From positions 64,655 to 128,654 of the forward strand of contig NW_026925150.1 in assembly GCF_032062105.1 (NCBI RefSeq): a stretch of 64,000 nt of DNA, given 5' to 3'. Source of the DNA: Saccostrea cucullata. Lineage: Eukaryota. A program made the translations under genes and the position numbers. The notes beneath the pieces were generated by a model. The model saw nothing but the letters and a program-made list of their open reading frames with translations, made no database searches and was not told where the DNA came from. Positions 1,010-59,950 of this stretch are shown here, piece by piece (within the stretch, counting starts at the first letter, position 1; each line of letters begins with the position of its first letter).

Positions 1010-1612
1010 CTAGTTACGTCGTATACTGTGTTTTGAAAGGAGTACTGGTACTTTAAAGGAAATTTCATTGACTACATGTGTGGTTTGGAGATTTAGAAAG
1101 TTTACATTTAGGTCACCTATGACTAAAATTCTATCGGATATATCAACAGCTTTTTCAAGGGACCATTCGAATTTTTTCCAAAAAGAATTATCGGAGTTAG
1201 GAGGACGATACACACAACAGAGCAAGATATTGCAGGTAGTGTCGCTAATTTCTAACCATACACATTCAAGCTTCACAGGTTTAAGATCAAAGCATCTATT
1301 TGTGCGCAACGAGTCAGCTGCATATGTAATTACACCGCCCCCGTGCGAGTTTTTATCTTTACGAAAAGTTGAGTTAAATCCATCAATAGGAATGTCTTCG
1401 TTTAAAATGTTAACATCAAGATGGGTTTCTCTGAAACATAAAATGTCGAAATCTGACACAATACTAGTACTTAAAAACTTATCAAACCTTTTTCTAATAC
1501 TTCTTTCATTTAAATGAAAAATGTCTAGTGTGGATTGGGTACTTTGAGATGGTCCCGGATTTGTCTCTATGTCGCCTGACAACAATATAAGGAAATACAT
1601 AATTTGTAACAC
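1010..1612 (-). CDS. LINE ORF2 N-terminus: 2A-like peptide (LLSGDIETNPGP) followed by an apurinic/apyrimidinic-type endonuclease domain
   Basis: 200-aa ORF. The DxExNPGP motif is at residues ~14-21, and EEP-fold catalytic motifs follow downstream. Confidence 0.7.
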   Translation of the reverse strand: MLQIMYFLILLSGDIETNPGPSQSTQSTLDIFHLNERSIRKRFDKFLSTSIVSDFDILCFRETHLDVNILNEDIPIDGFNSTFRKDKNSHGGGVITYAADSLRTNRCFDLKPVKLECVWLEISDTTCNILLCCVYRPPNSDNSFWKKFEWSLEKAVDISDRILVIGDLNVNFLNLQTTHVVNEISFKVPVLLSKHSIRRN

Positions 1613-2491
1613 GTAATTTTAAAAAAATATTTTCTTGTGCCCCTTTTGACAGTAAGCATTTGGTATTTTGCCAAATATACAGTAATTAAAACACTCAATA
1701 AAAAAAACAAAATCATGAAATCGTAGTACATAGAATGGCAATGATTTTGATGTACATCTACAGTTACAATAGAAAAGTCCAATTGCGACTCGATATTGTT
1801 CTGTTGTATTAGCCATTATCAAGACATAGAGAGACGTATTGAGCAATATTTGAACCAGCCACATGGAGACATATAATAAGTAAACATGCAATTTTATTTG
1901 TATGACCTTTGGTTAAAAATAAAAACAAAAAACCATTGAAAAAAAGTGTGGATAGAAAGAAATCAAAAAAGAACAAAACAATGAACATGATCAATGAAGG
2001 AAACAAAATAAAAATTGTGAACAAGAGTAAGGAAAATGGCAATGTAAATGTAATAAGTACAAGATTTTCCAAGTAACAGTGGTCATACTGGAGAGTTTAG
2101 AGGTAAGACAGAAACATCTTCGATAGTCCATACTGATATAAATTAATAGTTATTAATTTGAGAATACTAATTTAAGATTGCTTTTATCACTTTGATTTCA
2201 AGTGTATTGATGAATTGTGAAGACATCATTAAATAGTTAATGGGTACTGGAATTACATGTCCTCAGAAATCACATACTCTGGTGGATAGGACTGTGGTGG
2301 GGCCAGGTCATACAAATCTCTGATAGACCGGATCATGTATTTGCGACCCTGTTTGTACAACTTGGTGAATATCCGTCCATCGCTTGTCCAAAAGGAATGT
2401 ACCTTTTCAGCACGTTTTGCGCTTGCCATTTTTTTAACAACTCATTGTCTGTATTTAGTAAGATCTTCGGTTATAAATATCGTAGAGTCTC

Positions 2492-2995
2492 TTAGCTTTC
2501 GTATATCGCTGTATAGATTTTATTTTTCACTTTCCAATTTTTAAAACGACATATAATTCGAATATTACCGTTTTTGTTGGGTTTGCCAATAGGATTGGAC
2601 CTAAAAATGTCATCCTCTTTGAGCTCTATTGATAAGTGCTGATTGCATATAGAAATAACTCTAGCATCCGTGTCTGTGCCTTGGTCGGGGACCGAGCAAT
2701 TATGAAATCTTATGGAGTTTCTCCTTCTGTACTTCTCTAGGTCATCTACTGTATCCTCAAGATTCCAGATTTGATTTTGTTGATCAGTGTTTTGCTCTTT
2801 ATAATCCTTTAAACGCCCTGTGAGATCATCAATTTGTTTATTTTGTTTTGAAATTGTTTCAGTTTGGTTCTGAATTGTTTTATTTAATGAGTTGCAAACA
2901 GACTGGACTGCAAGCTCGATGGAGGGTTTGATAGCTTCTGCAAGCACTGGTATCAACTTCGCCATAAAAGTTGGCGGCATAGCCGGGTTGTTCAT
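2492..2995 (-). CDS. LINE ORF1-like protein (coiled-coil plus RRM-like 'RRNSIRF' region)
   Basis: 167-aa ORF with a Q/N/E-rich heptad-like segment followed by an RRNxIR(I/F) motif typical of ORF1p. Confidence 0.5.
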   Translation of the reverse strand: MNNPAMPPTFMAKLIPVLAEAIKPSIELAVQSVCNSLNKTIQNQTETISKQNKQIDDLTGRLKDYKEQNTDQQNQIWNLEDTVDDLEKYRRRNSIRFHNCSVPDQGTDTDARVISICNQHLSIELKEDDIFRSNPIGKPNKNGNIRIICRFKNWKVKNKIYTAIYES

Positions 2996-5900
2996 AGAGT
3001 TGAATATTAACTCTGGAAGACTGAAAGTTTTACCCTGAGTTTGGATAAAGGAGGTTGCTTATCAGTACCTGGTTCCCCAATGTTTTCAGTTGCAGAAGGA
3101 TTAGCATTCACAGATGAACTTTGATTAGACTGAAAAGAATTTTCAGAGACGGAGACGGAGGTGATTGTGCTTCCCCGTTCATTTTTCCAAGACCAGTTTC
3201 TACTGATTGATCACAAAGTTCATTTAGATCTGGTAATGATGAAGTTCTAAACCTTCTACGTGAGGTTTTAGATGAGCTATGGAAGGGACTATAGTGTGTT
3301 AGTTTCGTACCCACCGATTTTGACTTGGATGACATGAGTAGAACTCACAAATGTTTATGCATGCGACAGTACGTCAAAGTTCACACACCAAAAAACACAC
3401 AAAATAGACAAATGTTCTGCTTCAAAGTTTGTTTTCAATTAGAGTTGCATCTTGCTTAAGTCAGAGTATACACTAGCCTACTAATCAACACTCAGAAATG
3501 CAATACTACCTCTTTTACCCATCTACCTACCCTTTAAAGTCGTTTCTACAAGTGATAAACTCGCTTAATCAAAATCATATGTTAGAATATGCTGTGGTTA
3601 CTAAAGTATGAATTATATGAAATTGTGCATTTTTATTAGCTCATTTGCATCATTAGAAATGCCTGTATTTAGCCTTAACTCACTTGCGTAGTACTTACAC
3701 ATTGAAATTTGTAATAAATATTTACCGGACATTTTCTTGAAAAGAAATATCAGATCTTTATTACCGCTTAGAATTATAGAGCGAGTATGATTTTAAGCAG
3801 AATGAAAAAATAACAACCATGACAAACAATAATCATTGTTCTCCCGATAAGAATATATTAATATACCCCCTACATGTGTACTTCAATTCCATTCTTTATT
3901 CACTCAAAACCAGATAACTGGTACAAGAGGTACATATATACATATAATATAAACAAAAATTACATTCAAGGATCAAGAAATAGATAAATAAATATAAAGG
4001 GAAAAAAGAGTAAAAACTAGAGGTACTGTGAGCAATGAGCTCAATAAATGATACCCCCGCCTCCCATAATGTCAATGTTTCATAGAATATAATGGCAATC
4101 TCCATGTTTTGGTATGGGAAACCTAATATACCGAATATCGAATAAAAAAGTAAAATAGGAGGTGCTCAATGGCAATATGTAATAAAGATTCTGTGAAAGT
4201 TTCATTCAATTTCACTCAGTAGTATAAGAGGAGTTGCGGATAAGAGATAAAGCGTAACAGACGGACGGACGGACGGAAATACCGATTATTATATACCCTC
4301 CCACTTTTCAAGCAGGGGTATAAAACATGCAGTCAGTTATATACATATTGTATAAAACACGTGGAGGATTCAAGGACAGACAGTTTTAAAAATGGTCTTG
4401 ATTTTTTTTACTGACCATACAAGTTACGGATGTCAGCATGTGAATATTTTCTAGGACTTTATGCTTTAAATAGATATTCAAACTGAATAATATTGGGGAA
4501 AAAAATAAAATACAGGTTATTCATCATAGAAGTAATTGATTGCTTAATGTATTTTGAATTAGAAAATAAGCACATATTTTGATTTTGTAAGTAAACAGCA
4601 ATCATGAAACAAATTAAAATTGAGAATTCTGGTTTGTTTGCTAAAAAATTGCGAAATAATTGAACAAAAAATACATGCTATAGTGAATTTACCACCTATA
4701 ATTTTGTTAGTTTAAAAGATAATAATATATATCTATATTTTTTTGAAAATGGAAAGCTTATATATGGCTCAAAACTCTGTTACGGACGTCAGACAGTCTC
4801 CTCTTGCAAATAATTACTCTGAAGATATCAAAAGTAGTCTTGAAAATTATGGTTTACAGTTTCCTCAACTACGCAAACTTCCTTTTCTAGGTGAAAAAAC
4901 CAGATATTTTACCTACAGGAAGGGGTTATTACCAAAAGATCAGATAAATGCACACTTTCATATTTTCACTCTTTTCTCTCCATTTTTTCTGTCTTTAATT
5001 TTGCATTTGTCAATAACATTTTGTAAATAATGTATATGAATATTTATTGCACTGGTTTAATCTACATTTTTTCTAAATTAAACATTTTTTTTTCATTTAT
5101 TTAAAAGAAGTCAATTAATATTAGAAAGATTGGTGATAGGTGTCAGGTATTGTAAAACCTGACATCCGTAACCAACATTATTTAGAATAAATTTCCTACA
5201 AGAGAGTTTTAAACAATTAATTTAATCAATACACAATAAAATTTGGACATGTGCATATCAATACAATATTTCAAGGGGTCAGATATATTTATTCATATGA
5301 TATTTTTTTCAAATATGTCTGATACACAAATATCCGATCACATATTTTGCAAATCAATAAGTTTGGTGCTCGAATATATCAATGGAATGAAACATCTAAA
5401 GCATTTTACGCATTAATAATTATCACTTTTTAGATATAAAAACATAAGCATGAATAATAACATTTAGAAAATGCCTTTAAAGCGCTTAAAACTCTATAGG
5501 TATGGAATCTGACTTTCCACCCTGATATACGTAACGCTACAGAAAATTTTTCAAAATAATGTCAGATGATTCATTGACTTAGGTGAAATGGTTTTAGTCT
5601 ACAGCAAATATACTTCTTGCAAATGAGTATAAACTAACTCAAACAATTCCACACATATCCATTCGTATTTATTCACATTTTAACACACCTTTGTCATATT
5701 TTTCTCAAACATACGTTTTGCTTCATACATTTAATTATGATACTATCTATATTTATTCTTTTAAATACAATCACTTCCTTTCAAATCAATCACGCGTTAC
5801 GGAAGTCAGGCCTGTTTCAGCGACAATATATAAATCGGGATAAATAAAGGAATAATGTCTTAAATCAGATTATGTCTTACTTACAAAACAGGCTTTGTGA

Positions 5901-12469: not shown

Positions 12470-12565
12470 AAATGGTTTAGACATCGGGATCGAGATGCCT
12501 TTCATATCTCGATACGGATACGGATACGTCAGATAGAACAATCTCTATTACCATGCATTACAAGT
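12470..12565. repeat. Right arm of the 5.1-kb-spaced inverted repeat pair
   Basis: 'catcgggatcgagatgcctttcatatctcgatacggatacggatacgtcagatagaacaatctct'. Confidence 0.7.
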
Positions 12566-13685
12566 TTCACAGTCTTTTAATTGATTGATAGGCGATTGCT
12601 AATTTATCGTTCTGTAAGGTTTAAAAATCTTTGGATTTGACTTTAACTTTGACTTTTTCGACATAGGTTCTACCTTATAAAAATGTCTTGTATCGGTTAA
12701 AAAATCTTTCAAATCCTTTATTCTCGTACTTTGAAGATTCTCGTGAGAGCATTAACAATAAAAGTAAAATGCATTTATTCCACAAATTATATAGTTCCTT
12801 CAGAATTAACCTGACGCACACTCACAATACATTTTCAAATTATTATACAAGTTATATTGCAATACTACGGAAGCTCGTTGAGATCAGTTCAGAAAAAGAA
12901 ATATTTTTATTGCGTGTAAACGCAATGAAAAAATATTCTTTCTCTGAACTGTCCTCAACGGGCTTCCGTACAATACAAATAAATCAATTTCAATACACGT
13001 ATATCTGACAAAAGAGAAAATAATGAAATATCTTTCAAGTATCGTCATTATTTTTAAGCCTGAAAATATGGTGAACAAGTAAATTCAGACCCCCCCCCCC
13101 CCCACTCGCTTAAGAAAAAAAAAACAAGATCTAGGATGTCAAGTGGGGATGTTAGGAGAAAAGGGGCGGACACTATAAGAGGTGCAGGTGTGGCTATAAG
13201 GAGCAATGGTTTAAAAATACGTTGCACGGACATAACAATTTTACAAACACATGTTTGAATTTACGACCTTTGACCTTTTGACCTCAAAATGAACAGAGTT
13301 TTCGTTAATATTCTTTAGGGTCTGGTGGAATAATTTTTTTCTGCAAAGGCTCAAAAGATTCTATGGATATCATACGGAAACGGAAGTGTTAAAACAGACA
13401 GAATTTATAAAAGTATGACCTTGATCATTGACTTTTTGACCTCACAATCATTTGGGGAATACTTTGTCCATATGATAGGGAGTTGTGTTAAATGTCATTG
13501 CAAAAGCTCATACAAGATCATACAAGATTGTCGAGATATCTCTCTGAAATAATAGACAGACAGACTGAGAGACAAACAGACCGAAATTATACTGACGGAC
13601 TTTAAAAACACAACACATTTTTCATTATAATTATTTTTCAAAAAATATTTAAATCTTTTATTGCAATTTTCGTACACCATATATC

Positions 13686-13790
13686 ACAGGCACCAAACTC
13701 GCTTGAATTTTTGACCCCCTAGTATATTATAAAGATCTCTTTATAATATACTAGGGGGTCAAAAATTCAAGCGAGTTTGGTGCCTGTGCC
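13686..13790. repeat. Near-perfect 105-bp palindrome (47-50 bp arms, 6-nt centre) inside the Tc1-like element's 5' region
   Basis: 'cacaggcaccaaactcgcttgaatttttgaccccctagtatattataaa gatctc tttataatatactagggggtcaaaaattcaagcgagtttggtgcctgtg'. Confidence 0.9.
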
Positions 13791-13987
13791 ATATATAGAG
13801 CTGATTTTTAAATTCCACTACCCGACTTACCTGTGCTAGTTGTTTGCATGATGTTAGTAGTATTGCACGAGACATTCGGGTCTTTTTTAAAACATATGGA
13901 AAAGTGAAAAGGGGGTTTTGTCGTGATCAATCAACTTTGTCGATGAAAGTATAGTCACCACTAACAGAAGAAATCGAAATAAAGACC

Positions 13988-15009
13988 ATGCCGCGGTTAA
14001 ATAATGAAATGCGAAATCGAGCACTCGGTCTGCTGCAAGCAGGCGTTAGTCAGCGGGAGGTTGCAAGGCGCTTTAACGTTAATCCCTGTACAATTAGCCG
14101 GTTGCTGCATCGGTTTAATCAGACAGGATCAATAAATGATCGTCCAAGACCTGGTCAACCGTTTGTGACAACACCACGTCAACAGGTGTACATACGCCAG
14201 TGTCATTTGCGAGAACGTTTTACGGCAGCTGCGACCACGGCGAGGGAAATTATTGGACGTCATGGGAGGCCTATACATCCTAGAACAGTTTCTAGAATAC
14301 TAAACGCCATGGGATTCGGTGCAGAAGACCTTACAAAGGGCCACAACTAAAGCAGCATCACCGACGTAACAGATTGCTATGGGCCAGGCAGAATCTAAAA
14401 TCAACGCCGGAATTGGACACAGGTTGTATTTTCAGATGAGTCTAAGTTTAATGTTAGCAATGCAGACGGCAGATATCGAGTTTACCGTCGTTTACATGAA
14501 CGTTTTGTGGACAATTGTCTACTTGAACGCGACAGATTTGGAGGGGGTGGCGTCATGGTCTGGGTGCGATAAACCACCATTTTCGTTCACAACTGGTAAT
14601 TTGGAACGGAACTCTCACTAGCAGGAGGTACGTAGACGAAATTCTTCAGCCTGTTTTAGCACCATTATTGCAGCAGCATAGACAAGCCAACAGGCTTATT
14701 TTTCAACAGGACAATGCGCGCGCACATACGGCAAGATTAACGCAAAATTTTCTGCAAACGAACGGCATCAACGTCCTTGATTGGCCCGCTTTGTCTCCAG
14801 ACTTAAATCCGATTGAACATTTATGGGACGAGCTGGGGAGACGTGTGCGCAGACGCCAGCCTCAGCCTCAGAACCCACAGGAACTTGAGAGAGCCTTGTT
14901 GGAGGAGTGGCAGAATATTCCTCAAAGGACTATTCGAAGTGTCTTCCAGTCAATGACACGTCGCCTTCGCGCCGTAATTCGTGCCAATGGAGGCCATACA
15001 CAGTATTAG
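13988..15009 (+). pseudogene. Tc1-like transposase, frame-disrupted: HTH/paired-like N-terminus plus DDE catalytic domain split over three frames
   Basis: ORF 13988..14350 'NRALGLLQAGVSQREVARRFNVNPCTISRL' is an HTH. The frame then shifts with stops through 14350-14667. ORF 14668..15009 'IFQQDNARAHTA...LDWPALSPDLNPIEHLWDELGRR' carries the DD(34)E signature. Confidence 0.8.
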
Positions 15010-15329
15010 TGACCAAAACCACATGTTTGACGCACCCCTCTTTGACATTCTTTTCAGTTGTACCCCTTTTGTGCATAAAATGGTGTTAAAAATTAAAGAA
15101 CACTGAACATTATAAACATGGTTGAATGTATGCAAGAAATAATCAGTTTATAAGAAATATGAATAAATTTAAAATACCAAATATTATTAGGTGTTGCGAT
15201 TTTAAAGTCCGTCAGTATATTATCCACATACATAATAATTTCAAATGTTGAATTGAAATTGATGACTTATTGTCGAAAAGAATAAAAAGAAAAGGAATTA
15301 AAAAATTCCTTCGCAACGTATTTGATTTC

Positions 15330-17100
15330 TACGAAAGCCGGATAGGCTCATTTCTGAAAAGATAAAAAAATATTTAACTCGTTATAACGAGTTAATTATC
15401 TCGTTATAACGACTTAGTTATCTCGTTATAACGACTTAGTATCTCGTTATAACGAGTTAATTATGTCCTTATAAGGACTTAGTTTTATCTCGTTATTACG
15501 AATTACTTATGTCGTTATAACGAGTTAGTATCTCGTTATAACGAATTAATTATCTCGTTATAACGACTTAGTTATCTCGTTATAACGAGTTAATGATCTC
15601 GTTATAACGAGTTAATGATCTCGTTATAACGAGTTAGTTATCTCGTTATAACGAATTAATTATCTCGTTATAACGAGTTAATGATCTCGTTATAACCACT
15701 TAGTTATCTCGTTATAACGAGTTAGTTATCTCGTTATAACGAATTAGTTTTCTCGTTATAACGAGTTAATTATCTCGTTATAACGAAATAATAAGTTGCC
15801 CTTTTATTTCCAAATTAATAGCAATATAGGAATTAAAAATGGCTGTAGTTTTAATGCTATTGAAGTTTAATTGATAATTATCAGTCGTACTTAACTTTAA
15901 AATTGATAAAGAGATGCAAATATAATTTGCAATATGGTTTTAATAATACCTGTACTAATCCTGTTCGAACTACAAGTATCTTGCCGTCAATAATCACAAT
16001 TTGATAAAAATAGCTATCTTTTAATCGAACACATTTATACGTGAACGTCTCTAAGTACACACTATTAAAAATATATGGCCAAATGTACTTGCTTCAAAGT
16101 TTTGCAATTTAAGTATAACAACTTTCTCCGATAAAACACACTATTTTTTTTATATATGTTTAACTTTTGGATGACCTTATAGCTTCCATAATCAATGTCT
16201 AATTTCTTAATTAATGCATTATAATGTCAAGCTAAGGCAGGCGTTAGTTACACAACATATCTTATATACACTTACAGCGTAATATATATTATTTTTAGAG
16301 TCAGAAATGTTTTGAAGAAGGGGGGTATAGAGACATCAGCATTTAGGTCTTGGGCCCGCGTAAAATTCGGGGGCTACTGTCCACTCATAACACAACATCA
16401 CGAGGCAGTCATAAGGTTCCGTATACACGTACACGTATTTGTCTTTGGTGTTTTTGAATAAAACAATACAAATCAACTGCATCGTTTATAATTAAACGAA
16501 CTACAATCACAGACACAACCCCTCGAGAAAAAAAACAAAAACAAAACTAGTTTGCTGTTTTTCAATGAAATATTTATCATACACACAAACTTGATCGACT
16601 CGATTTTATATGCAATACTTCCTATTACTTACATATATCAACTTTAGAGTTTTTAACTCGTTATAACGAGAAAATTAACTCGTTATAACGAGAAAAATTA
16701 ACTCGTTATAACGAGAAAATTTCTCGTTATAACGAGTTAATTTTCTCGTTATAACGAGATAACTAAGTCATTATAACGAGATAACTAACTCGTTATAACG
16801 AGATAACTAACTCGTTATAACGAGATAACTAACTCGTTATAACGAGATAAATAACTCGTTATAACGAGATAATTAACTCGTTATAAGGAGATAACTAACT
16901 CGTTATAACGAGATATCTAAGTCGTTATAACGAGATAATTAACTCATTATAACGAGATACTAACTTGTTATAACGAGATAATTTACTCGTTTTAACGAGA
17001 CTAACTCATTCTAACGAGATAATTAACTCGTTATAACGAGTTAATTTTTTTTTATCTTCTCAGAAATGAGCCTATCCGGCTTTCGTAGATTTCTAATGAA
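15330..17100. mobile_element. Foldback-type element. The arms are inverted arrays of a ~22-bp minisatellite whose core is the 14-bp palindrome CTCGTTATAACGAG. A ~870-bp spacer separates the arms, and ~60-bp outer terminal inverted repeats flank them.
   Basis: Array 15360..15790 ('tctcgttataacgagttaattatctcgttataacgacttag...') and the inverted array 16660..17040 ('aactcgttataacgagataact...'). Outer inverted repeats 15320-15360 'gatttctacgaaagccggataggctcatttctgaaaagataaaaaa' against 17045-17100 (rc). Confidence 0.75.
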
Positions 17101-17351
17101 AATCAAATGAAAAGAAATAATATTTTATAATTACCTGTTTCGTTTTGCAGACTGATATTCATATTGTTGATCATTCTGCAAATAATACAAAATAAGAGCT
17201 TATTTCTCTTTTGAGAATGCAAATGTAAGAAATATGTTATAACAACTTTTTCAAAAGGGGTATCAAATTTTTTTATCTACTCTCATTCATTCTAAGGTTG
17301 TCACGTTAGAGACCATGGTAACCTTTAAATATTCATATAATTATATCGATA

Positions 17352-17577
17352 TAGATACTGTGGTTTCGTCGATTTTCGTTGGCATCAATTTTCGTGGATT
17401 TTGTAAAACAGACGTTTTCGAGGATACGTAATTTCGTGGACAAAAGCATTGCCTATACAAATGAATGTCATATTTCGTAATTCAATGAACATTTGAATTC
17501 GTGGATCTGCTTAACAACGAAATCCAAGAAAATTTGTGCCCAACGAATATTGATGAAACCACAGTATATGAATATTT
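17352..17577. mobile_element. Small MITE (~226 bp) with 28-bp terminal inverted repeats
   Basis: 'atactgtggtttcgtcgattttcgttgg' at 17352 against 'ccaacgaatattgatgaaaccacagtat' at 17550. Confidence 0.6.
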
Positions 17578-17584
17578 TCAAAGT

Positions 17585-19560
17585 CAGAAAGTATTGTCTT
17601 TGAATTAACTTCGCGGGGGCGGGATTTGTAATGAATCTTCACTTTCGGGATTCAATGAAAGATACCATGTTTGTGCTATCGTGTAGTTTACAGGATTATA
17701 CGTGTGTAGGCCGAAACAATATATTTTTAAAAGGTATATATGATTAAGGAATCACTGTCTAGTTTTTAGAGTATGCCAGGGCATCAACAATAGTGGGAAA
17801 CATGGGATAATTTGCATAACGGTCGAAGCCCGTTATGCTAAAATTATCCCGTGTTTCCCACTATTGTTGATGTCCCTGGCATACTCTCAAAACTACACAG
17901 TGATTCCTTATATTTCCATTTCATTGTGAAATAAAATTGTAGATTTAGACTTTAAAAATGTAGACAAAGACTATATTCACACGAGGACTTCCATGCCAAT
18001 TTCAATAGTCCTCGCCCATTGACGTCAAACAGATAGGCAGCCGCACGAGATTTACATGCATATTTGGCCTCCTTAGCGTCAGACACAGAGACAGATGCGC
18101 ACAGGATTTGCATGCGTATTAGGCCTCCTTAGCTCCTGACCTATCGACCTGCCTAATTTACATTCCGGCAGAATTATCAAGAAATAAACTCCGACAACTT
18201 TCAAAGAGTTATCACAGAGAAAAAAAATTAAAAAAAATTAGAAATGGAAATATAAAGACATCAACAGTTAGATTCCAAAAAATATAAACGGTGAACCATG
18301 AAAGAATTACGTATATCAGATAAAGTATGTTTAAGTATGTTTAAGCTTAGTCGCACAAAGTTTAAAGTAGGAAAGTGTAGAGTCAGCCAAATTAAATAAA
18401 TACTCAATAAAAAAAGAAACACATATTGTTTTACTTGTCAAAGAAATATTTAAAATGTACATGGAACGACTATTTTTTATATCATTGGATACCTGTGACC
18501 TATTTAAAGGACAACATGGGGTTTTAAAACCCAATTGTTGAATTATCTCCCTTGATTAAACATTTATATGAAAGTACTACCAGTAGTGTTTTTCATGATT
18601 TCTTCTAAATCGGATGTCTATTTTCGTTGATATTTGGATTTAGAGAAACTGTTAACACCCCAATTAAACCCAGATTTAAGATTTGATTGCAGTGTTGATG
18701 CTGCAATGCCACGCCGAAACAAAGATGAACACAACCAGGCAAACGATGATACTAAACGGAACTACGCAATAGGAAGTTGCAACTGTATGTTGAATAAATC
18801 AATGGGTTTTGCAACCATTAAACTAACGTCTGAAGACAACTATCTGGCCATCCGCAGGTAACCACAACCAGCCAGGACCGTCAGACCCCCCCCCCCTTCA
18901 GCACCTTATATATGCTATTCAGAACGTGCTGTAAAAATCAGCATAAAGGTGCATAAATTGTTCGCAAGAGACTGGAAAAAGATGGTATTCCTCAACGATA
19001 TCCGTACATTGGAAACCCAATAGCATTGACACGTCGCACAGTACATTTTGATATGCCCCTTGAATTTGGAGGCGATGAAAATGGCATCAACTTGACTTTT
19101 CAATTTGCAACATAGGGCATGTTTGATTTTTATCACAACACACTCTAAAATAAGGTTTAAACTGACAAGTTAGATTTTCATATTATTCTGAATATGCGTT
19201 TCTTTTTTTTTTTTTGTTGTTGACTATATAACAAGAAAAAACAGACATGCGAGAGTTTTCATTGTGTGGATCTCCGCTGTATTGATAAAGCTGGATGAGG
19301 GAAACAAAGATACTCTTGCGTCCCCTTCTTCAAAAGTGGTGAACGATAAAATAGCGCCTCATGAATATAACTGTTGATGTGTCTCCATCTCCCATTTTTC
19401 AAAGTATTTTTTAATTTGATTCAGCCGATATAATCGTACACGTTGGCAAATGCATAGTACATATTAAGTTTTCAGTGATACACGGGTGAAGTGAAGATTA
19501 ATTAGAAAACCCGCCCCCGCAAAGTTAATTTAAAAATACTTTTTTCTGACTTTTTCTCGC
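17585..19560. mobile_element. ~2-kb non-autonomous element bounded by ~70-bp inverted repeats. It contains a 150-bp hairpin (17745..17900) and a CRE-containing dispersed repeat (17980..18135; another copy at 6451..6570).
   Basis: 17585 'aaagtcagaaagtattgtctttgaattaacttcgcgggggcgggatttgtaatgaatcttcac' is the reverse complement of 19495..19560. Hairpin 'cactgtctagtttttagagtatgccagggcatcaacaatagtgggaaacatgggataattt' / rc. Confidence 0.55.
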
Positions 19561-19977
19561 AAATATTCATTTAATAAATAAATTTCCAATATACATTTCA
19601 ATGTATAATTTGGATTCCCTGTTGTGACTCCGCCGTATCCATAGGGGTCATGGTCTGAACAGTTAAGATTCTACACTGTCCCTTGAAGGCTTCCCTTTAT
19701 TTTCAGCTTTTCTGTCTCTGTGGTTTTTGAGATCAAGATTTTTAATGACCCAACCCAATTTTTGCCTTTACTTCAGTGAAAATATTCCCATTTTCTAATC
19801 AATTATGGAATTTTTCTTTAAAAATCAATACCTTTGACACCTCGAGAAAATAGCATCCACCCTTCAAAAGATAATCGAACTTTGCTTCAGTTGAATACTT
19901 TTAAAAATATATAATATAGTTGATATTAATTGAAAAGTTTTTCTTTTCATTTTGCGGTACCCCAATTTAAGAGCCAG

Positions 19978-21024
19978 TTTTTTTTTTTTTTTTTTGTTTT
20001 TTTTTCAATTTTCGTTTTCTTATCTGAAATACATTTGATATCCTGTCATCCTCTGTTCTATATATCATAATCATGACATAACATAATCTTAAAGAAAAAT
20101 CCTTAAGTTTGTTTTTATAATAATATTCCAGAATGTTCTTACCTGGAAATCGAATCTCACACCCTTGGAAATTCCAGCTTTCAATATGGAAGCTTTATTA
20201 ACAGGCACGTCACTGAATATATTATGATTAACATTTTGATGACCATGCTTTACTAGGATATCGACTATAAACATGACGAGTTGATTTTTTTTATATTGAT
20301 TATTACATTTATTGTATGGTATCTTTTGTTTAAGCGAAATTTGATTTTTTTTTATCATATTATTAGCGTTTAACACAAAGCCCATCCTAAGTAATGATTG
20401 CCCTGTGCACAGAGTGTCCCAGAATATATGACACAATTACATAATATTGAATAAAAACAAATACAATTGTACAAGGAAAACATTGCATAATTATACCGCC
20501 CAATCTAATTCACGCAATTTAACGGACACTGAAACATGTGAAAGAAACACAGTTTAAAAAAGTTCGTTCACTCTGAAAAATGCTATGGTAAAAAAATAAT
20601 GTTCTCTAAAGGATTTATTGAACAATTCTAATCTGCATTTTGGCAAGGAATAATTGGAGGAATTTCTAGTAGAGTTTTGTGAAATACATGTATTGCCTCT
20701 AATATCAGATACTATGTTTTGAATGTAAGTAGATACTAAATTGTTGTGTATTTTGTACATTGTTACTAGATTTGTTCGATTTCTTCTATTTTCCAATGGT
20801 TCCCATTCAGTTTCCAGATAAAGTGAATTTTTAGAAGCAATAAGCGTAAGACCAGTTACTATTCTAGCAGCAAATAATTGAACTTTCTCAAGCTTTTCAA
20901 TGTCTGCCTTTGAACATTCCGACCAAACTTCAACTGCATATTCCAGTTGTGGTCTGATAAAAGAAATATACATCTGGGACAAAATACATGTATCCCTTGA
21001 TTTGTATTTCTGGAAATGTATCAT
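19978..21024 (-). mobile_element. 3' fragment of a non-LTR retrotransposon (CR1/jockey-like RT C-terminal domain) ending in a poly(A) tail at 19978..20008 (seen as a T-run on the plus strand)
   Basis: ORF 20554..21024(-) 'IRPQLEYAVEVWSECSKADIEKLEKVQLFAARIV...WEPLENRRNRTNLVTMYKIHNNLV' is the conserved post-RT domain. ORF 20089..20436(-) continues it. A T17-T27 run lies at the 3' end. Confidence 0.7.
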
Positions 21025-21440
21025 TAGGCCTTACATCAAATTTCTATATTTGGAAGTTCATGGTCACTGTCATCTAAAAATGTGACAGATGTAAAATACT
21101 TCTTTAAGAGTTCAATCTTGTCGGAGACAAATCTTTTCGGAGTTTTATTAATTTGTTATAACAAATTACTATTTTTTGACATATTTGACATGTGCACAGA
21201 ACTATGGAATCTATATCAGATTAGAAATCTTCAAAATATTAAATTTGTGAAACAATAAACACACGCTCTGCAGAGCTTTTCACCTATATGTTTCTTTTAG
21301 CAGCTCAGAGTTTTCACTTCAAACATAAATGCCATGATAAAATGCATAAAAGTCCTTAATTCTATTCCTTATAGCTTATTCTTATTCTCTCTCTCTCTGT
21401 CTTTCTCTCTCTTATACTGTTCAATCCAATTCATGTATAA

Positions 21441-21779
21441 ATCAGGCACGTAGCATTGTTTTTGAAAGTGTGTGTGTGTGGGGGGGGGGGGGGGCAACCA
21501 GAGAAAAAAAACCTTTCCCTTACCTTAAAAAAACAAACAAACACGTAAATCCTATTTCGTGGGGAGGGGGGGGGGTTGCGGCTAACTTCCTTTCCCTTCC
21601 AATTTTTTCCATACAATGCCACATTTTCCTTCATATCATTATACTGTGGTAAGAAGTGGGGGGGGGGCAATCGTTCAATGGACATTTTCAATAGTAAAGG
21701 TAATGTTGGGAAAAAAGGTTGGGCCGGGGGGGGGGGGGGCAGGCCCCCCTGCCCCCCCCCCCCATTGCTACATGCCTGT
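21441..21779 (-). mobile_element. MITE, family defined by the TIR 'CAGGCACGTAGCAT' and internal G/C homopolymer tracts (10-17 nt). Copy 1.
   Basis: The ends 'caggcacgtagcattg' and 'caatgctacatgcctg' are reverse complements. The internal segment 'ttcaatagtaaaggtaatgttggg' is shared with the copy at 63395..63775. Confidence 0.65.
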
Positions 21780-22039
21780 AAAGAATAACATCTTTAAACT
21801 GAATGCCAAAATCCTGGATCTGCTCTTATGGTGAACATCCATGGTTCCGTATAAAGCTGTATGCAACAAAGGCAACATTGACCAAAATGAATTTGTATAG
21901 ATAAATTATCAAGAAAAAAAATACAATTCGTAACAACATTCCCCGGAAAACAAAAGAAAAAAAACCCACAATATTCTTGAGTGGGTAGCGCTTGGTAAAA
22001 TTTAATATTAAATACCTAATGTGTCATTCAATTCTTTTG

Positions 22040-22880
22040 TATGGCTAAAATTTTTATAATTAAAAAAAGGGTTTATTCCCACTTAGCCAACATTTTTGAA
22101 AAATCCTATTCCCACATAGCCAACGGGTGCGTATCATTACCGCTAAATTTTAAAAATATTCATTACCGCTACATAGTCATTACCGCTACAAAAAATCTTA
22201 CAATACCGCTACATAAAAAAGTATACATTACCGCTACATTGCCTCTTTCGTTAGCCAGCCACATATGCGTGTACAGTACAACCTATAAATGCATAAGACC
22301 CGTTTCCCCTGCTCACCACGGGGAGGTGAAAGTAGGACTTTAAGCAGGATGGGTTTTTTTATGGCATTATTAAAATCAACTTTATTTCATAAAACACACA
22401 CAAAAAATTTTGAAAATCAAGCACTGTTTATAGATGCAGTTCTAAGTTTTTTCAAACGTTTTTTACACTATCGCTAAAGCCTTGAAAGCCTTTTGCTTGA
22501 CATATTGTTGTTTTCTAAATTTATAACCATCGATAAGTAAGCCGGCATTCCCTCAATTTGTAACAAACTTCTCAATTGTGGCCATAATGTTCAGATGAAG
22601 CTATAAAATAATTAAATTTCGACTGCTCATTCTGATTAGATAGTTAGTGAATTCTGTTGATTAAAACTCATATACCGAACCATACCTGCCTAAATCGATA
22701 TGTAGCGGTAATGAGTTGTTTTCGACTGATTCAATATGTAGCGGTAATGAGTTGTTTTTGGTCGGAAAAAATGTAGCGGTAATGATCGGTCGAAAATCTG
22801 AAAAAATGTAGCGGTAATGAGTTGAAATTTTTGGCAATGGAGCGGTAATGTTGACCTCCCTAGCCAACATTTTGATTTTT
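22040..22880. mobile_element. Foldback-like element: inverted arms of short tandem repeats ('cattaccgctacat' units) with 'cccacttagccaacat' termini
   Basis: 22070-22250 against 22680-22875 are reverse-complement arrays. A related mini-hairpin lies at 24066..24130. Confidence 0.6.
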
Positions 22881-24136
22881 ACACCTGAGTGATTAATAGG
22901 CTATAGTCTGTTTTCTGGTGTGAATTACCTGAGAATTAATTCCTTTGGAAAAAAAACCAATGTAAAAATATACCAACCAGGGGTAAAATTTGACTCAAAA
23001 TAAATATAAAATTAATTAAAGAAAATAAAATTAAAGTTCAATAATTTGTTAATGTAAAAAAGTAGTAAAATTTTACCAGATAATTAATTGGTTTAATTTT
23101 AATTAATAAATAGAATGTTAATATCATATATAAGTAAATATAGAATAAAATATTTTTATTTTACCACACAACATGTTTTCATTAGAAAATAAATAAAAAC
23201 AAGACACTCTGAAGAAACAAGTATGTATAATCATGAAATTTTTAATTTAATTTCCGACATCTTTTGTTTTCATTTCCAGAATTTACTATTGCAGCAAGTG
23301 AAAATGGAATTTTAAAAGTATTTATTACAAAATACTGATAGTTTAAAAAAAAGCATCTACGCATATGTGCATATATGTAGCACTAAATCTAGGTAAAAGA
23401 GTTCAATAAGCATAAACTTATATAACTTTTTCACCGCACTTTTTCAACTTTAATGTTAGTGATATCCTCACACTTATGTCTAAGTCATTGATACAAAATG
23501 TAAATTTCAATTATTTATTTATGACTTTTTTTTAAGTCTTAGGATCTGTTACCAAAAGTACTAAATATTTATTTGAAAAATGTTGGAAATTAAGACAAAA
23601 AAATGTTGAAAATGAAAAATAAAAAGTTGATTGTTACAAAAAATTTCGGAAATAAAATGCATAACATAACAGTACCAATACACAAGTTAAGTTTTAGCAA
23701 ATTAACTTAGTTTTCATATTTATATTTCCAGATGGAAAAGTAATGTAAGCATTTATTATTTTAGTATTTTAGGTTTACATAAGTGTTTTTAGGTATAATT
23801 TAATAAAATTCTTTAGAAAAAGAGAATTTGTTATTCATTTCATATTTTAGATATGAATTCATCTAAAAATAGTGGTAAAAATAATGAAATATTTAAAAAG
23901 TTAGTTTTAAAATATTATTTCATATATTTTTTTGGAACTATTTGATATTTATGAGTAGAAGACATTCATTTTTTTATATGAATTATTTACTATTTATTTA
24001 GCATATTGCTAAAACAGACTATAGCCTACCTGTAATTTATTTCTTTTGCTCTCTACCTGCACCCCATTCCCACTTAGCCAACATAGATTTACCTGTGTTT
24101 TACCTGTATTTTTTCAAAATGTTGGCTAAGTGGGAA

Positions 24137-24570
24137 GACACCAAAAAAAGAGCCTGCTGGAAAAGCTCTCAATATATAGTCCGATTAAAGCCTTATTTAT
24201 TCTTGGCCAAAAACAGTTACAAACTATTTTCAGAAATCCGACTTATACTAAGAATTTTGATTTGATCTGGCTTTCGTAGATCTGTATACATTTCAAATTT
24301 TGTCAAAAATAGTAATTTGTTATAACAAATTTGTTATTCTTTTGTATGGCTAAAATTTTTATAATAAAAAAAAAGAGCCTGCTGGAAAAGCTCTCAATAT
24401 ATAATCCGATTAAAGCCTTATTTATTCTTGGCCAAAAAAAGTAGTTACAAACTATTTTCAGAAATCCGACTTAATTACTAAGAATTTTAATTTGATCTGG
24501 CTTTCGTAGATCTGTATACATTTCAAATTTTGTCAAAAATAGTAATTTGTTATAACAAATTCTTAATTTG
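24137..24570. repeat. Tandem duplication (2 x ~230 bp)
   Basis: 'aaaagagcctgctggaaaagctctcaatatata.tccgattaaagccttatttattcttggccaaaaa...tttgtcaaaaatagtaatttgttataacaaa' occurs twice. Confidence 0.85.
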
Positions 24571-37189: not shown

Positions 37190-37655
37190 TAATAAATTTG
37201 TTTTATCTGTCTTAGTTGTTGAGGGAATTTCTGTTTTGTCTTTGTTAGCCATTGACATGATTGAGGGAGCTTCTATATTTTTTTTTACCCTTGTTAGATG
37301 TTGATAAGGACCTGTGTTTATTTTTAGATGTTGAGGGATTTCTCTCTATTTGCTTATAATTAGATGTTGAGGGATTTCTCTCTATTTGGTTATAATAAGA
37401 TGTTGAGGGATTTCTCTCTATTTGGTTATTTTTAGATGTTGAGGGATTTCTCTCTATTTAGATATTTTTTTGATGTTGAGGGATTTCTATCTATTTGGTT
37501 ATTTTTAGATGTTGAGGGAGCTTCTCTCTATTTAGATATTTTTTTGATGTTGAGGGATTTCTCTCTATTTGGTTATTTTTAGATGTTGAGGGATTTCTCT
37601 CTATTTAGATATTTTTTTGGTGTTGAGGGATTTCTATCTATTTGGTTATTTTTAG
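37190..37655 (+). repeat. Minisatellite (~36-37-bp unit, about 8-9 copies) derived from the intron 6 / exon 7 junction. Each unit carries 'tttttag|ATGTTGAGGGA'.
   Basis: 'ttatttttagatgttgagggatttctctctatttgg' is repeated. The final unit continues into exon 7 ('tttttagATGTTGAGGGAGCTTCTCTCTGTTTGGGGTGAC'). Confidence 0.85.
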
Positions 37656-37797
37656 ATGTTGAGGGAGCTTCTCTCTGTTTGGGGTGACAGCAGTGCCCTG
37701 AAGCACACCTCTGTGGAGCAGCATCTGTACATCACAAAGGCTCTATTTATAGGACTGGGATTCCTCAAAGAATCAGACAAGGCAGAAATCAGAGAGG
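37656..37797 (+). CDS. TELO2: TELO2 exon 7. Its acceptor (tttttag|ATG...) is the last unit of an intronic minisatellite derived from this junction.
   Basis: 'MLRELLSVWGDSSALKHTSVEQHLYITKALFIGLG...' matches human '[34 protein letters not shown]'. Donor GAGG|GTAAGT. Confidence 0.7.
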
Positions 37798-40010: not shown

Positions 40011-41185
40011 GTAAGCCATTTGTTATTAAAGTCTTTATTCTAAATTAGTCAAGATATTTCATCCATTTTTAAAATTTCACATTTATTATTTACTTTTCAA
40101 ATGTTTTAAGAGAAAAAATATTAGTTTGGTAAAAAAGAAAATATCTTTCTTTTTAAAAATACATTGAAGCATCAAGTTTAACACTTTATATCCTATGTAG
40201 ATTGGTATTCCAACCTATTTAGAACAGTACTCTTTGGCCTTCATAGACTGGTTCTTTTTGACCTACTTAGACTGATACTCTTTGACCTACTTAGACTGGT
40301 ACTCTTTGACCTACTTAGACTGGTACTCTTTGACTGGTACAATATACTCTTTGACCTACTTAGACTGGTACTCTTTGACCTACGTAGACTGGTGCAATTT
40401 GATAAGTTTTTTTGACATGGTGCACTTTGCTATCACCTGGCAAGAACTTTTTTTCTTAACACGTTATTAAAAATAGTGCTTATGTACATTGACAAGTTGG
40501 CGATATCCATTGTTAATTTTAAACTGCTAATAACAAAAATCTCACACATACACGTTGTTTTAACTTTAAATCAACAGAGGTTACGAAAAATGAGAAAATA
40601 AACAATTAAAACAGAGAGAAAACAACAACAAACGTGCACTACATTTGCATAAAAACAGCTCGTACTATGAATTACTCGGTTTTGTAGGTTCAAATCATAC
40701 CACGGTGGCCCGTAAAATTTACGTGAACATTTCATGTATATAACATTTGTTATATATTGTGCCATTTATATTGGGAAAAAGTTAAAAACAAGGTAATTAT
40801 TTATAAAAGTGCACTGTGAAGAAAACTGATATCAAATTATATAATATTATTCAATAATCATTTGTAAGTTGAATTTGTAACAAAGTGATCTTGCTATAGT
40901 CAAAGAATAAAAATTTGAATACAATTTAAATCAATTATGATTCAATTTAAATATCAATGAATTAAAACCGATATATCTTTAAAAAAAATGTTTTTCCTCT
41001 CCTGATCGATTGGCTAAATTTCAGAGCCATGGCTCAAATTTTTTAACCTCAAAGAAACGTTAAATATTTTTTAAATTCTTATTACTGGATTATTTCATTC
41101 CCTTAACATAGATGTTGAATTTCTCCTAAAAAAAAGTTTTATAATCTCAATGCTTGTGTATTTATTTTGTATTTAAATGTTTCAG

Positions 41186-45089: not shown

Positions 45090-46130
45090 CAAAATGCTAC
45101 TCCTCCTACAATTTTAGTCTGATTTCAATATTACTTGGCACACAAGTAGACTACACTAAGATACATAGAATAGTGCATCGGTTTTTAATTTCGATGAACG
45201 GTGTTGCCATGGTTACTAAAAATAGAATTTTCTATGAAATTCCTTAAAAACGCTACTCCTTCTACAGTTTTGGTCTGATTTCAATATTACTTGGCACACA
45301 AGTAGACTACACTAAGATACATAGAATAGTGCATTGGTTTTTAATTTCGATGAACAGTGTTGCCATGGTTACTAAAAATAGAATTTTCTGTGAAATTCCT
45401 TTAAATCGCTACTCCTTCCACAGTGTTGATCTGATTTCAATATAACTTGGTACACAAGTAGACTACACTAAGATACATAGAATAGTGCATCGGTTTTTGA
45501 TTTCAGTAAACGGTGTTGCCATGGTTACTAAAAGTAGAATTTTCTGTGAAATTCCTTAAAAACGCTACTCCTTCTACAGTTTTGGTCTGATTTCAATATT
45601 ACTTGGCACACAAGTAGACTACACTAAGATACATAGAACAGTGCATCGGTTTTTAATTTCGATGAACAGTGTTGCCATGGTTACTAAAAATAGAATTTTC
45701 TGTGAAATTCCTCTAAAACGCTACTCCTTCTACAGTGTTGATCTGATTTCAATATAACTTGGTACACAAGTAGACTACACTAAGATACATAGAATAGTGC
45801 ATCGTTTTTTGATTTTAGTAAACGGTGTTGCCATGGTTACTAAAAATAGAATACTCTGTGAAATTCATTTAAAACGCTACTCCTTCTACAGTTTTGGTCT
45901 GATTTCATTATAACTTGGCACACAAGTAGACTACACTAAGATACATAGAATAGTGCATCAGTATTTGATTTCGATGAATGGTGTTGCCATGGTTACTAAA
46001 AATAGAATTTTCTGTGAAATTCCTTTAAAACGCTACTCCTTCTACAGTATCAGTTTGATTTCAAAATAAGTTGGCACACAAGTAGACTACACAAAGAAAC
46101 ATAAAATAGTGCAATGGTTTTTGATAAATA
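45090..46130. repeat. Satellite / tandem array, ~155-bp unit, about 6.5 copies, in the TELO2-MVP intergenic region
   Basis: The unit 'gctactccttctacagttttggtctgatttcaatattacttggcacacaagtagactacactaagatacatagaatagtgcatcggtttttaatttcgatgaacggtgttgccatggttactaaaaatagaattttctgtgaaattcc' is repeated. Confidence 0.9.
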
Positions 46131-58928: not shown

Positions 58929-59394
58929 CTATAAATAGAAACAATAGTCCTAAATATAGAAAAAAATTCAAGATCAACTTCTGTTTTCATTTTCTAACTT
59001 CCGAGAGTGAAATTAAAGTTTAAATTAAATGTTGCATAAATATCAGTGTTTTAATTTGATGCCTGGGAATTTCATTTTTTCTAGTATAAATCTATGAACC
59101 AAGAAGATGGGAAATTTCAGAAGGGTTAATTTAAATTGCCGTTACACCATTTACAAGCAGAGTGGTTTGTATTCTATCCTGGAAACTTATTCAAGTCTGC
59201 ACATTTTGCCAGCAAACATAGCTAAAGAGCTAATATCTCTGACCTTTATACATGACTGCATAAACATGATAAAGTCATGCTTAACTGTGTAAGGTTAAAA
59301 ATAAAACTAGAACTGTCCAAACAGGACAAAATACCCTCCGCTGGGTTTTTCTGAGGTACGTTTTTCCATAAAGATTATATTTAAGATATGTATC

Positions 59395-59950
59395 AAACAC
59401 AAATTATGAAATTTTTTTAACAGTGACCTTGAACTTCTCCAAATGACCTTGGGTCAAGGTCATGACACACTCTTGGGTCATGGGCAATCTTTGTGTGAAA
59501 AGAGAACCTACCAAGTTTATCCATAAGAAAAATATGGACCGGACACAAATTATGAATTTTTTCTTCAAGTGACCTTGAACTTCCCCAAATGACCTGGGGT
59601 CAATGTCAAGACACACCCTTGGGTCATGGGCAATCTTTGTGTGAAATGAGAACCTACCAAGTTTATCCATAAGAATGATATGGACCGGACACGAATTATG
59701 AAATTTTTCTTCCAGTGACCTTGAACTTCCCCAAATGACCTTAGGTCTAGGTCATGACACACCCTTGGGTCATGGGCAATCTTTGTGTGAAATGAGAACC
59801 TACCAAGTTTATCCATAAGAAAGATATGGACCGGACAGGAATTATGAATTTTTTCTTCCAGTGACCTTGAACTTCCCCAAATGACCTTGGGTCAAGGTCA
59901 TGACACACCCTTGGGTCATGGGCAATCTTAGTGTGGAGTGCATAACGTCC
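59395..59950. repeat. Intronic satellite, ~160-bp unit, about 3.5 copies (MVP intron 3)
   Basis: 'caaattatgaaatttttt..cagtgaccttgaacttccccaaatgaccttgggtcaaggtcatgacacacccttgggtcatgggcaatctttgtgtgaaatgagaacctaccaagtttatccataagaa.gatatggaccggacac' is repeated. Confidence 0.9.

Follow-up and report, generated by a model that had tools for sequence, protein, structure and literature searches.

The window analysed here is a stretch of 64,000 nucleotides from Saccostrea cucullata (NCBI RefSeq assembly GCF_032062105.1, contig NW_026925150.1, positions 64,655 to 128,654 of the forward strand), and the subject of this work is a foldback-shaped, non-coding element that occupies positions 15330–17087 of it (1758 bp, ~1.76 kb) and whose two arms consist of short palindromic repeats. 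A preliminary description of this DNA had drawn the element as a pair of inverted repeat arrays around a spacer, located at 15330–17100. The inverted arrays proved to be real (19 and 18 units of 22 bp in opposite orientation, on either side of an 869-bp middle) and the start at 15330 was retained, whereas the end lies at 17087 and not at 17100. The statement that the arrays are not like those of clustered regularly interspaced short palindromic repeats (CRISPR) was also borne out.

The repeat units were clearly concentrated in the two arms. The palindromic 14-mer CTCGTTATAACGAG was found 32 times when up to one mismatch was allowed, every copy falling inside 15378–17040 (0 expected in shuffles), and the 8-mer GTTATAAC was found 37 times as compared to 1.9 expected. 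Tandem Repeats Finder (TRF) gave a period of 22 bp for both arrays, with 19.0 copies at 15374–15792 and 18.1 copies at 16653–17046. Parsed unit by unit, the left arm (15378–15787, forward strand) resolved into 19 tandem 22-bp units, each formed by the palindromic core CTCGTTATAACGAG and the spacer TTARTTAT, and the right arm (16657–17040, reverse strand) into 18 units with the spacer ATAAYTAA. Since the right spacer is the exact reverse complement of the left one, the arrays are truly inverted. In the three innermost units of the right arm (16657–16722) the spacer is a variant, AAAATTAA, and these units show a local inversion with respect to the fourth. The middle domain of 869 bp (15788–16656) is non-coding and resembled nothing else in the window or in the loci compared with it. 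No open reading frame (ORF) of at least 60 aa was found in 15330–17087, no Rfam family was detected in 12500–25500, a region that includes the middle domain, and a literature search on the repeat core sequence returned nothing relevant.

Outside the arrays, the element is bounded by terminal inverted repeats (TIRs), which the preliminary description had also recognized but at a length of ~60 bp; they measure 48 bp on the left and 47 bp on the right. The left TIR (15330–15377, forward strand) starts with 5'-TACGAAAGCCGGATAGGCTCATTTCTGA, reads TACGAAAGCCGGATAGGCTCATTTCTGA[A/G]AAGATAAAAAAA... and continues as an A-rich tract up to the first unit. The right TIR (17041–17087, reverse strand) ends in ...GGCTTTCGTA-3', and its reverse complement aligned with the left one with two mismatches and one indel. 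The sequence TCTACGAAAGCC of the left TIR appeared four times in the window as compared to 0.13 expected. Immediately outside both TIRs the hexamer GATTTC is present (15324–15329 and 17088–17093), read directly from the sequence and recovered as a perfect match in the scan for TIRs and target-site duplications (TSDs). The pre-insertion allele would carry a single GATTTC without the element (...TTTGATTTCTAATG... / ...GTATTTGATTTCTAATGAAAAT...); no paralogous empty site was found in the window or in the compared loci.

The arms, of ~430–460 bp and made up almost entirely of ~19 tandem palindrome-cored units of 22 bp, were 90% complementary to each other over 278 nt, and each of them was self-complementary to 79–81%. 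The element folded as single-stranded DNA reached -435 kcal/mol vs. -140 ± 12 kcal/mol for shuffles, and in the predicted structure 348 of the 459 bases of the left arm were paired with the right arm. Single repeat units folded weakly (-3.7 to -6.6 kcal/mol), whereas the arms folded strongly.

Related elements and IS3EU transposase genes in other genomes

Metagenome contigs were scanned for two adjacent TCGTTATAACGA cores. The pattern was matched by 61 contigs (L001–L061), mostly of animal origin, and a sample of their ORFs revealed animal genes, among them those for cadherin, a rhodopsin-type G-protein-coupled receptor, Med31, and UBX/PUB proteins; the viral contigs scanned for the same dimer gave no match. 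Three contigs were dropped as unrelated look-alikes, namely L009 (plasmid-iteron-like), L049 (a 22-bp satellite), and L059 (bacterial-looking). The first of these (NIWG01001727.1, bacterial-looking as well) presents at 1325–1452 six 21-bp repeats, AAAAGTCGTTATAACGATACAT, directly after an ORF of 337 aa, and the 12-nt core that they have in common with the transposon units is apparently due to chance.

Many of the contigs presented (N)TCGTTATAACGA(N) arrays behind a TACGRAGCC-type terminus and an A/T run. These relatives follow a common plan: 5'-TACGRAGCC or TACGRAAGCC, then 20–45 bp that usually close with an A/T run, and behind these 2 to ~14 array units with a period of 21–22 bp and palindromes such as ATCTCGTTATAACGAGAT, AAGTCGTTATAACGACTT, or AATTCGTTATAACGAATT, the whole terminus-array structure being inverted at the opposite end. 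Thus, as expected from the preliminary description, GTTATAAC arrays do occur with TIRs elsewhere. Since no two copies share the flank immediately 5' of TACG, the element boundary could be fixed at TACG, and all relatives begin and end TA..TA, like the window element (TACG at 15330, CGTA at 17087). The arrays were the sole sequence shared between the window and the fetched loci.

An automatic search for TIR pairs, in which the count of TSDs was restricted to family-type termini, yielded 20 complete elements, and a perfect 6-bp TSD was present around 12 of these (L006, L007, L020, L023, L030, L040, L048, L050, L052, L060, and two in the window), the probability of such a match by chance being around 1/4096 per element; the control with hexamers offset by 6 was inflated by TA-rich low-complexity pairs. 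A 13th case of 6-bp TSD, in L037, was spotted by eye. The element of L020 is a complete foldback-like relative of 2.1 kb, with the TSD CAATGG. As a separate observation, at ~130–175 of L021 (WLWI01056770.1) two IS3EU-type termini stand head-to-head (..AATAGGCTTTTGTAGGGAGCCTATTAG..), in what looks like a joined-ends or reversed-ends junction.

Transposase genes were approached with a profile of six IS3EU catalytic cores, aligned from Data S3 of PMC10045372 and searched against a protein collection. At E <= 1e-10 the profile matched 5064 proteins, all with Pfam rva_4, and the named matches came from Dreissena polymorpha, Patella caerulea, Gigantopelta aegis, Mytilus coruscus, fishes, and a coral. 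The DNA around six IS3EU proteins was retrieved as seven loci of ~20 kb each (L062–L068), originating from Dreissena (CM035927.1, ~51.25–51.27 Mb), M. coruscus (CACVKT020010417.1), Gigantopelta (CM027796.1), and three further assemblies; ORFs of these loci matched Pfam rva_4 at 1e-30 and 2e-25. In all seven, a tandem array was located 350–900 bp upstream of the rva_4 integrase-core ORF, with a period of 20–22 bp or one compounded two- or three-fold from it (42/43, 51, or 63 bp), and, with one exception in L066, it was the sole such array in its locus. A TACGRAAGC-type terminus lies 40–60 bp outside the array in five of the six families (L062–L066, L068). Terminus and unit read, respectively, TACGAAAGCCTATTAGTACCAC and GGCGTTATAACGCC in D. 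polymorpha (L063), TACGGAAGCCTTTTAGGGCC and AATTTGWTATAACAAATT in M. coruscus (L064), TTCGAAAGCCTATAAGGGTC and CACGTTATAACGYG in ENA ERZ26273219 (L062), TACGGTGAGGGG and TCGACTTATAACTCGA in G. aegis (L068), and TACGGAAGCGTATTTAGGAC and TCTTGCCCGGGCAAGA, the latter a different palindrome, in ENA ERZ25072999 (L065/L066). At 9327–9963 of L065/L066 the terminal 20 bp are OBLZ-family-like, TCTTGCCCGGGCAAGA replaces the palindrome TCGTTATAACGA, and the outer ATCT/AGAT is kept.

Classification and proposed role of the palindromic arrays

The combination of TA..TA termini and a 6-bp TSD is the published signature of IS3EU/GingerRoot (PMC10045372), and GingerRoot elements are described with 6-bp TSDs, mostly TA..TA termini, and TIRs (PMC6839031). 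The window element displays all of these, with TACG and CGTA at its ends, GATTTC on both sides, and unique TIRs of 48/47 bp plus inverted arrays. Its end sequence is, besides, continuous with that of the transposase-encoding copies, which carry TACGRAAGC-type termini and ~21-bp arrays in L062–L066 and L068, so that the bivalve and gastropod IS3EU loci resemble it both in terminal sequence and in sub-terminal arrays. This physical linkage of the terminus-plus-array module to IS3EU genes indicated that the window element is an IS3EU/GingerRoot derivative. No rva_4 DDE transposase is encoded, as there is neither an ORF of at least 60 aa nor a tblastn match to the six IS3EU cores, and the element is therefore non-autonomous. 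All these factors taken together, 15330–17087 is very probably a non-autonomous IS3EU/GingerRoot DNA transposon whose sub-terminal arrays have expanded into a foldback shape. It differs from GingerRoot in the missing transposase gene and in the length of its arms (~430–460 bp vs. TIRs of 100–150 bp; PMC6839031).

Several results weigh against this assignment. The exact 15330–17087 element is present in one copy only in the sequences compared, and no autonomous partner combining exactly the terminus TACGAAAGCCGGATAGG with CTCGTTATAACGAG units turned up among these sequences. No remnant of an IS3EU transposase was detected in the element, the window, or L001–L061, either by tblastn with the six cores or by Pfam searches of 160 ORFs. 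Within 10 kb downstream of the transposase genes of L062–L068 there was no right terminus and no second inverted array, and a complete two-ended autonomous element was for this reason never seen; the non-autonomous relatives, unlike these seven loci, carry arrays at both ends in every case. Finally, 8 of the 20 complete relatives lack a perfect TSD, and the unit of the L067 family is 20 bp long with a palindrome of only 6 bp.

As an IS3EU/GingerRoot derivative, the element would be mobilized in trans by an IS3EU DDE transposase (integrase-like, Pfam rva_4), which would act on the conserved 5'-TACGRAAGCC...GGCTTYCGTA-3' ends and join them to the target with a 6-bp stagger, giving rise to the duplication of GATTTC. 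The 22-bp units, centred on the palindrome TCGTTATAACGA, may represent reiterated sub-terminal sites for the N-terminal DNA-binding region of the transposase, and their spacing of two helical turns would align them along a single face of the DNA. Slippage or unequal exchange may lengthen and shorten arrays of this kind, and the long inverted arms would be a by-product that permits hairpins or cruciforms to form.

Judging from sequence patterns, we lean slightly toward the palindrome-cored units being transposase-binding sites. The idea is strengthened by the position of such arrays next to IS3EU transposase genes, and it is supported by the inner TCGTTATAACGA, which hardly varies among many diverged families and host genomes, by the conserved placement of the arrays just inside the terminus in autonomous and non-autonomous copies, and by the conservation of the ~21-bp (two-turn) register whatever the sequence of the palindrome. 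Palindromy itself persists between families (CTCG/CGAG, GTCG/CGAC, TTCG/CGAA, TTTG/CAAA, GGCG/CGCC, and CACG/CGTG), including the wholly different TCTTGCCCGGGCAAGA of L065/L066.

A possible but less likely explanation is that the element is of IS3EU type and its arrays are not protein sites at all, being kept by hairpin-mediated slippage or gene conversion, or serving a hairpin, single-stranded, or circular intermediate or a silencing/heterochromatin role. The outer half-site variants recombine and mix freely within arrays, the units are not independent, and any strict compensatory evolution would be hypothetical; processes at the DNA level (slippage, conversion), and not protein binding, might be what maintains the palindromes. 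In the same direction point the complete difference in palindrome between families with similar terminal 20 bp (L065 vs. the OBLZ family) and the strong folding of the arms although single units fold weakly. In contrast, an invariant inner TCGTTATAACGA with conserved position and ~21-bp phasing is the pattern of recognized sites, and the long TIRs of Galileo reportedly hold multiple transposase-binding sites, a finding attributed to Marzo et al. in 2013.

Palindromic phased arrays are undescribed in the IS3EU/GingerRoot papers PMC10045372 and PMC6839031, and the structure and function of IS3EU are largely unexplored (PMC11934779); the superfamily is already known, and Repbase probably includes consensus sequences of this sort. 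As a wider and more tentative proposal, phased ~21-bp palindromic arrays inside TACGRAAGCC might be a general, undescribed hallmark of animal IS3EU/GingerRoot elements, providing the transposase with a multimeric landing platform, and the palindrome would co-evolve with this enzyme (GTTATAAC-type in most families, GCCCGGGC in another); if the arrays expanded in a runaway fashion, IS3EU might be the third superfamily, after Mutator and P, to generate foldbacks independently.

With this assignment, a repeat of foldback appearance joins a transposon superfamily that has been little studied, and recognition features become available for annotating IS3EU foldbacks and MITEs (miniature inverted-repeat transposable elements) of molluscs, namely TACGRAAGCC ends, a 6-bp TSD, and sub-terminal palindromic arrays of ~21 bp. 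Such long inverted arms could act as hotspots for hairpins, replication stalling, inversions, and the birth of satellites. If the palindromes were transposase sites, they would open a way into how DNA is recognized by an integrase-like transposase of eukaryotes, an enzyme of unstudied mechanism.

Alternative assignments and other repeat-bearing elements

A non-autonomous derivative of Polinton/Maverick or Ginger2/TDD, superfamilies which are likewise reported with ~6-bp TSDs (6 bp for Polinton, and 6 bp for Ginger2 in PMC6839031), is very unlikely to account for the element. The termini reported for these groups are AG..TC (Polinton) and TG..CA (Ginger) as compared to TA..TA here, the ends of the element are continuous in sequence with the termini of loci encoding IS3EU transposases, and no autonomous Polinton or Ginger2 copy with TACGRAAGCC ends and arrays was seen.

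The preliminary description had taken the element for a classic foldback (FB) element. Its reading as a mobile element of foldback architecture stood, whereas the 6-bp TSD and TA..TA termini carry the signature of IS3EU/GingerRoot. Membership of the Mutator superfamily, like Drosophila FB and Tetris, or of the P superfamily, like Galileo, with the arms bound by a transposase of Mutator-like element (MULE) or THAP type, is highly improbable, even though long tandem-repeat TIRs around a non-coding middle fit the FB scheme (PMC4079207). The TSD is of 6 bp vs. 8–10 bp in Tetris and other Mutator-type foldbacks (PMC4079207), TA..TA termini with arrays adjoin IS3EU (rva_4) genes in seven loci, and no ORF of MULE or THAP type was associated with termini and arrays. 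FB-type elements belong mostly to Mutator, with TSDs of 8–10 bp, and Galileo to P; moreover, foldback structure may evolve independently in separate lineages of transposable elements through elongation of the TIRs (PMC4079207). The foldback shape of the window element appears to have arisen independently within IS3EU, as a convergent architecture and not through FB membership.

Drosophila FB, Tetris, and Galileo have in common with the window element their long inverted arms built from tandem repeats, the short and unique terminus, the middle without coding capacity, and a strong hairpin potential. They differ from it in the termini and in the associated transposase superfamily, and the Mutator-type elements also in their TSD of 8–10 bp. 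In the P superfamily, to which Galileo belongs, the TSD is of 7–8 bp. Neither this TSD nor a P-type THAP transposase was found here, the duplication being of 6 bp and the associated genes rva_4 integrase-like.

Reiterated sub-terminal motifs are known as transposase-binding sites in hAT elements (AAACGG hexamers of Ac/Ds) and in CACTA elements (12-bp TnpA sites of En/Spm). These, together with the THAP sites of Galileo, resemble the arrays described here in that many short motifs are placed inside the termini of autonomous and non-autonomous copies alike; they differ in that the IS3EU-type units hold a 12–18-bp palindrome in a strictly tandem register of 20–22 bp, and are putative sites only. 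In bivalves, the tandem-repeat MITEs pearl/CvA and DTC84 are derived from Helentrons and carry satellite-like monomers of ~150–170 bp in direct orientation. They are likewise non-autonomous elements of molluscs with internal tandem repeats, but have neither TIRs with a 6-bp TSD nor palindromic 22-bp units.

That the locus is no transposon, but a minisatellite duplicated locally in inverted orientation, or else a structure of replication-origin, iteron-like, or satellite type, with a coincidental GATTTC, would agree with the single copy of the exact element, the self-complementary arms, and the iteron-like repeats of L009 with their 12-nt core, but is scarcely credible given the sharply bounded TIR with its 6-bp TSD, the dozens of relatives that occupy unrelated sites of other animal genomes and have 6-bp TSDs of their own, the linkage of the arrays to transposase genes, and a window that represents a eukaryotic genome rich in transposable elements.

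Other elements in the window

A MITE of 105 bp belonging to the same superfamily is located at 12866–12970. Its termini are TACGGAAGCTCGTTGAG...GGGCTTCCGTA (TACGGAAGC...GCTTCCGTA), it is flanked by the perfect 6-bp TSD CAATAC (12860–12865 and 12971–12976), and it contains no GTTATAAC units.

The second array and the solo unit that the preliminary description had pointed out are both present (24536–24737, with a period of 21 bp and 9.5 copies, and ~21150, respectively), but the array is not unrelated to the foldback element, as had been stated; a terminus of the same type adjoins it, and its unit equals that beside the M. coruscus IS3EU copy L064. The array forms part of a degenerate element, 'X', of which the right arm and terminus are recognizable at 24536–24770 (reverse strand). 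Its ~9.5 units of 21 bp, AATTTGTTATAACAAATT, are followed by an A-run and by the terminus TAAGGAAGCGGG..., ending at 24770, the reverse complement of which reads TAAGGAAGCGGGTAGGGTCGCAGCAGTA. Both unit and layout match the M. coruscus copy at 9272–9509 of L064. The region 24480–24566 has an inverted partner at 21145–21231 (forward strand; 87 nt, 78%), which contains the solo TTTGTTATAACAAA unit (21150–21163) and then a degenerate TACGAAAGCC-like terminus (TATGGAATCT, ~21205); the solo unit thus corresponds to the inverted partner of the inner edge of the 24536–24737 array. A further terminus, of element 'Y' (24143–24510, reverse strand), is homologous to that of the element at 15330, with GGCTTTCGTA ending at 24278 and repeated at 24508, inside a tandem duplication of ~230 bp (24143–24561). 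'Y' appears to have been inserted in the palindromic centre of 'X'. In the whole cluster (21145–24770) the array lies outside the TACGAAAGCC terminus, the flanks are mutual inverted repeats (TGTATACAGATC and GATCTGTATACA), the duplication at the inner junction comprises only 4 bp (GATC), and another nested element occupies 22067–24142. The locus is an old, rearranged, nested cluster of IS3EU-type elements.

The Tc1 copy that had been noted beside the foldback element does lie ~105 bp away from it, at 13590–15217. It is Tc1-like, degenerate, and frameshifted, with HTH_23 and DDE_3 matches and with TIRs and TA duplications of its own, and homologues of its transposase reached at most 60% identity. 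The foldback element shows neither TA duplication, Tc1 TIRs, nor DDE_3, and the two differ in TIRs and in TSDs (TA vs. 6 bp). Nothing ties the Tc1-like copy to the foldback element, and their proximity is coincidental. Near the left end of the Tc1-like copy, a MITE of ~105 bp forming a perfect hairpin is nested at ~13686–13790.

A large inverted-repeat element with arms of 352 nt (91% complementarity) extends over 26226–30382, with an inner inverted repeat (28052–28174 vs. 29925–30047), and is probably another DNA transposon. Fragments of retrotransposons without long terminal repeats were found on the reverse strand at 1013–3058 and 20092–21030, comprising an endonuclease, an ORF1-like coiled coil, and the C-terminal part of a reverse transcriptase; database homologues of the endonuclease fragment showed at most 64% identity. 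Several long G and C homopolymer tracts accumulate within ~300 bp at 21480–21760. Satellite-like arrays are present at 35982–36652 (166 bp x4), 45091–46125 (156 bp x6.6), and 59383–59935 (146 bp x3.8), and others with shorter periods at 37318–37682 (36 bp x10) and 40213–40393 (24 bp x7.7).

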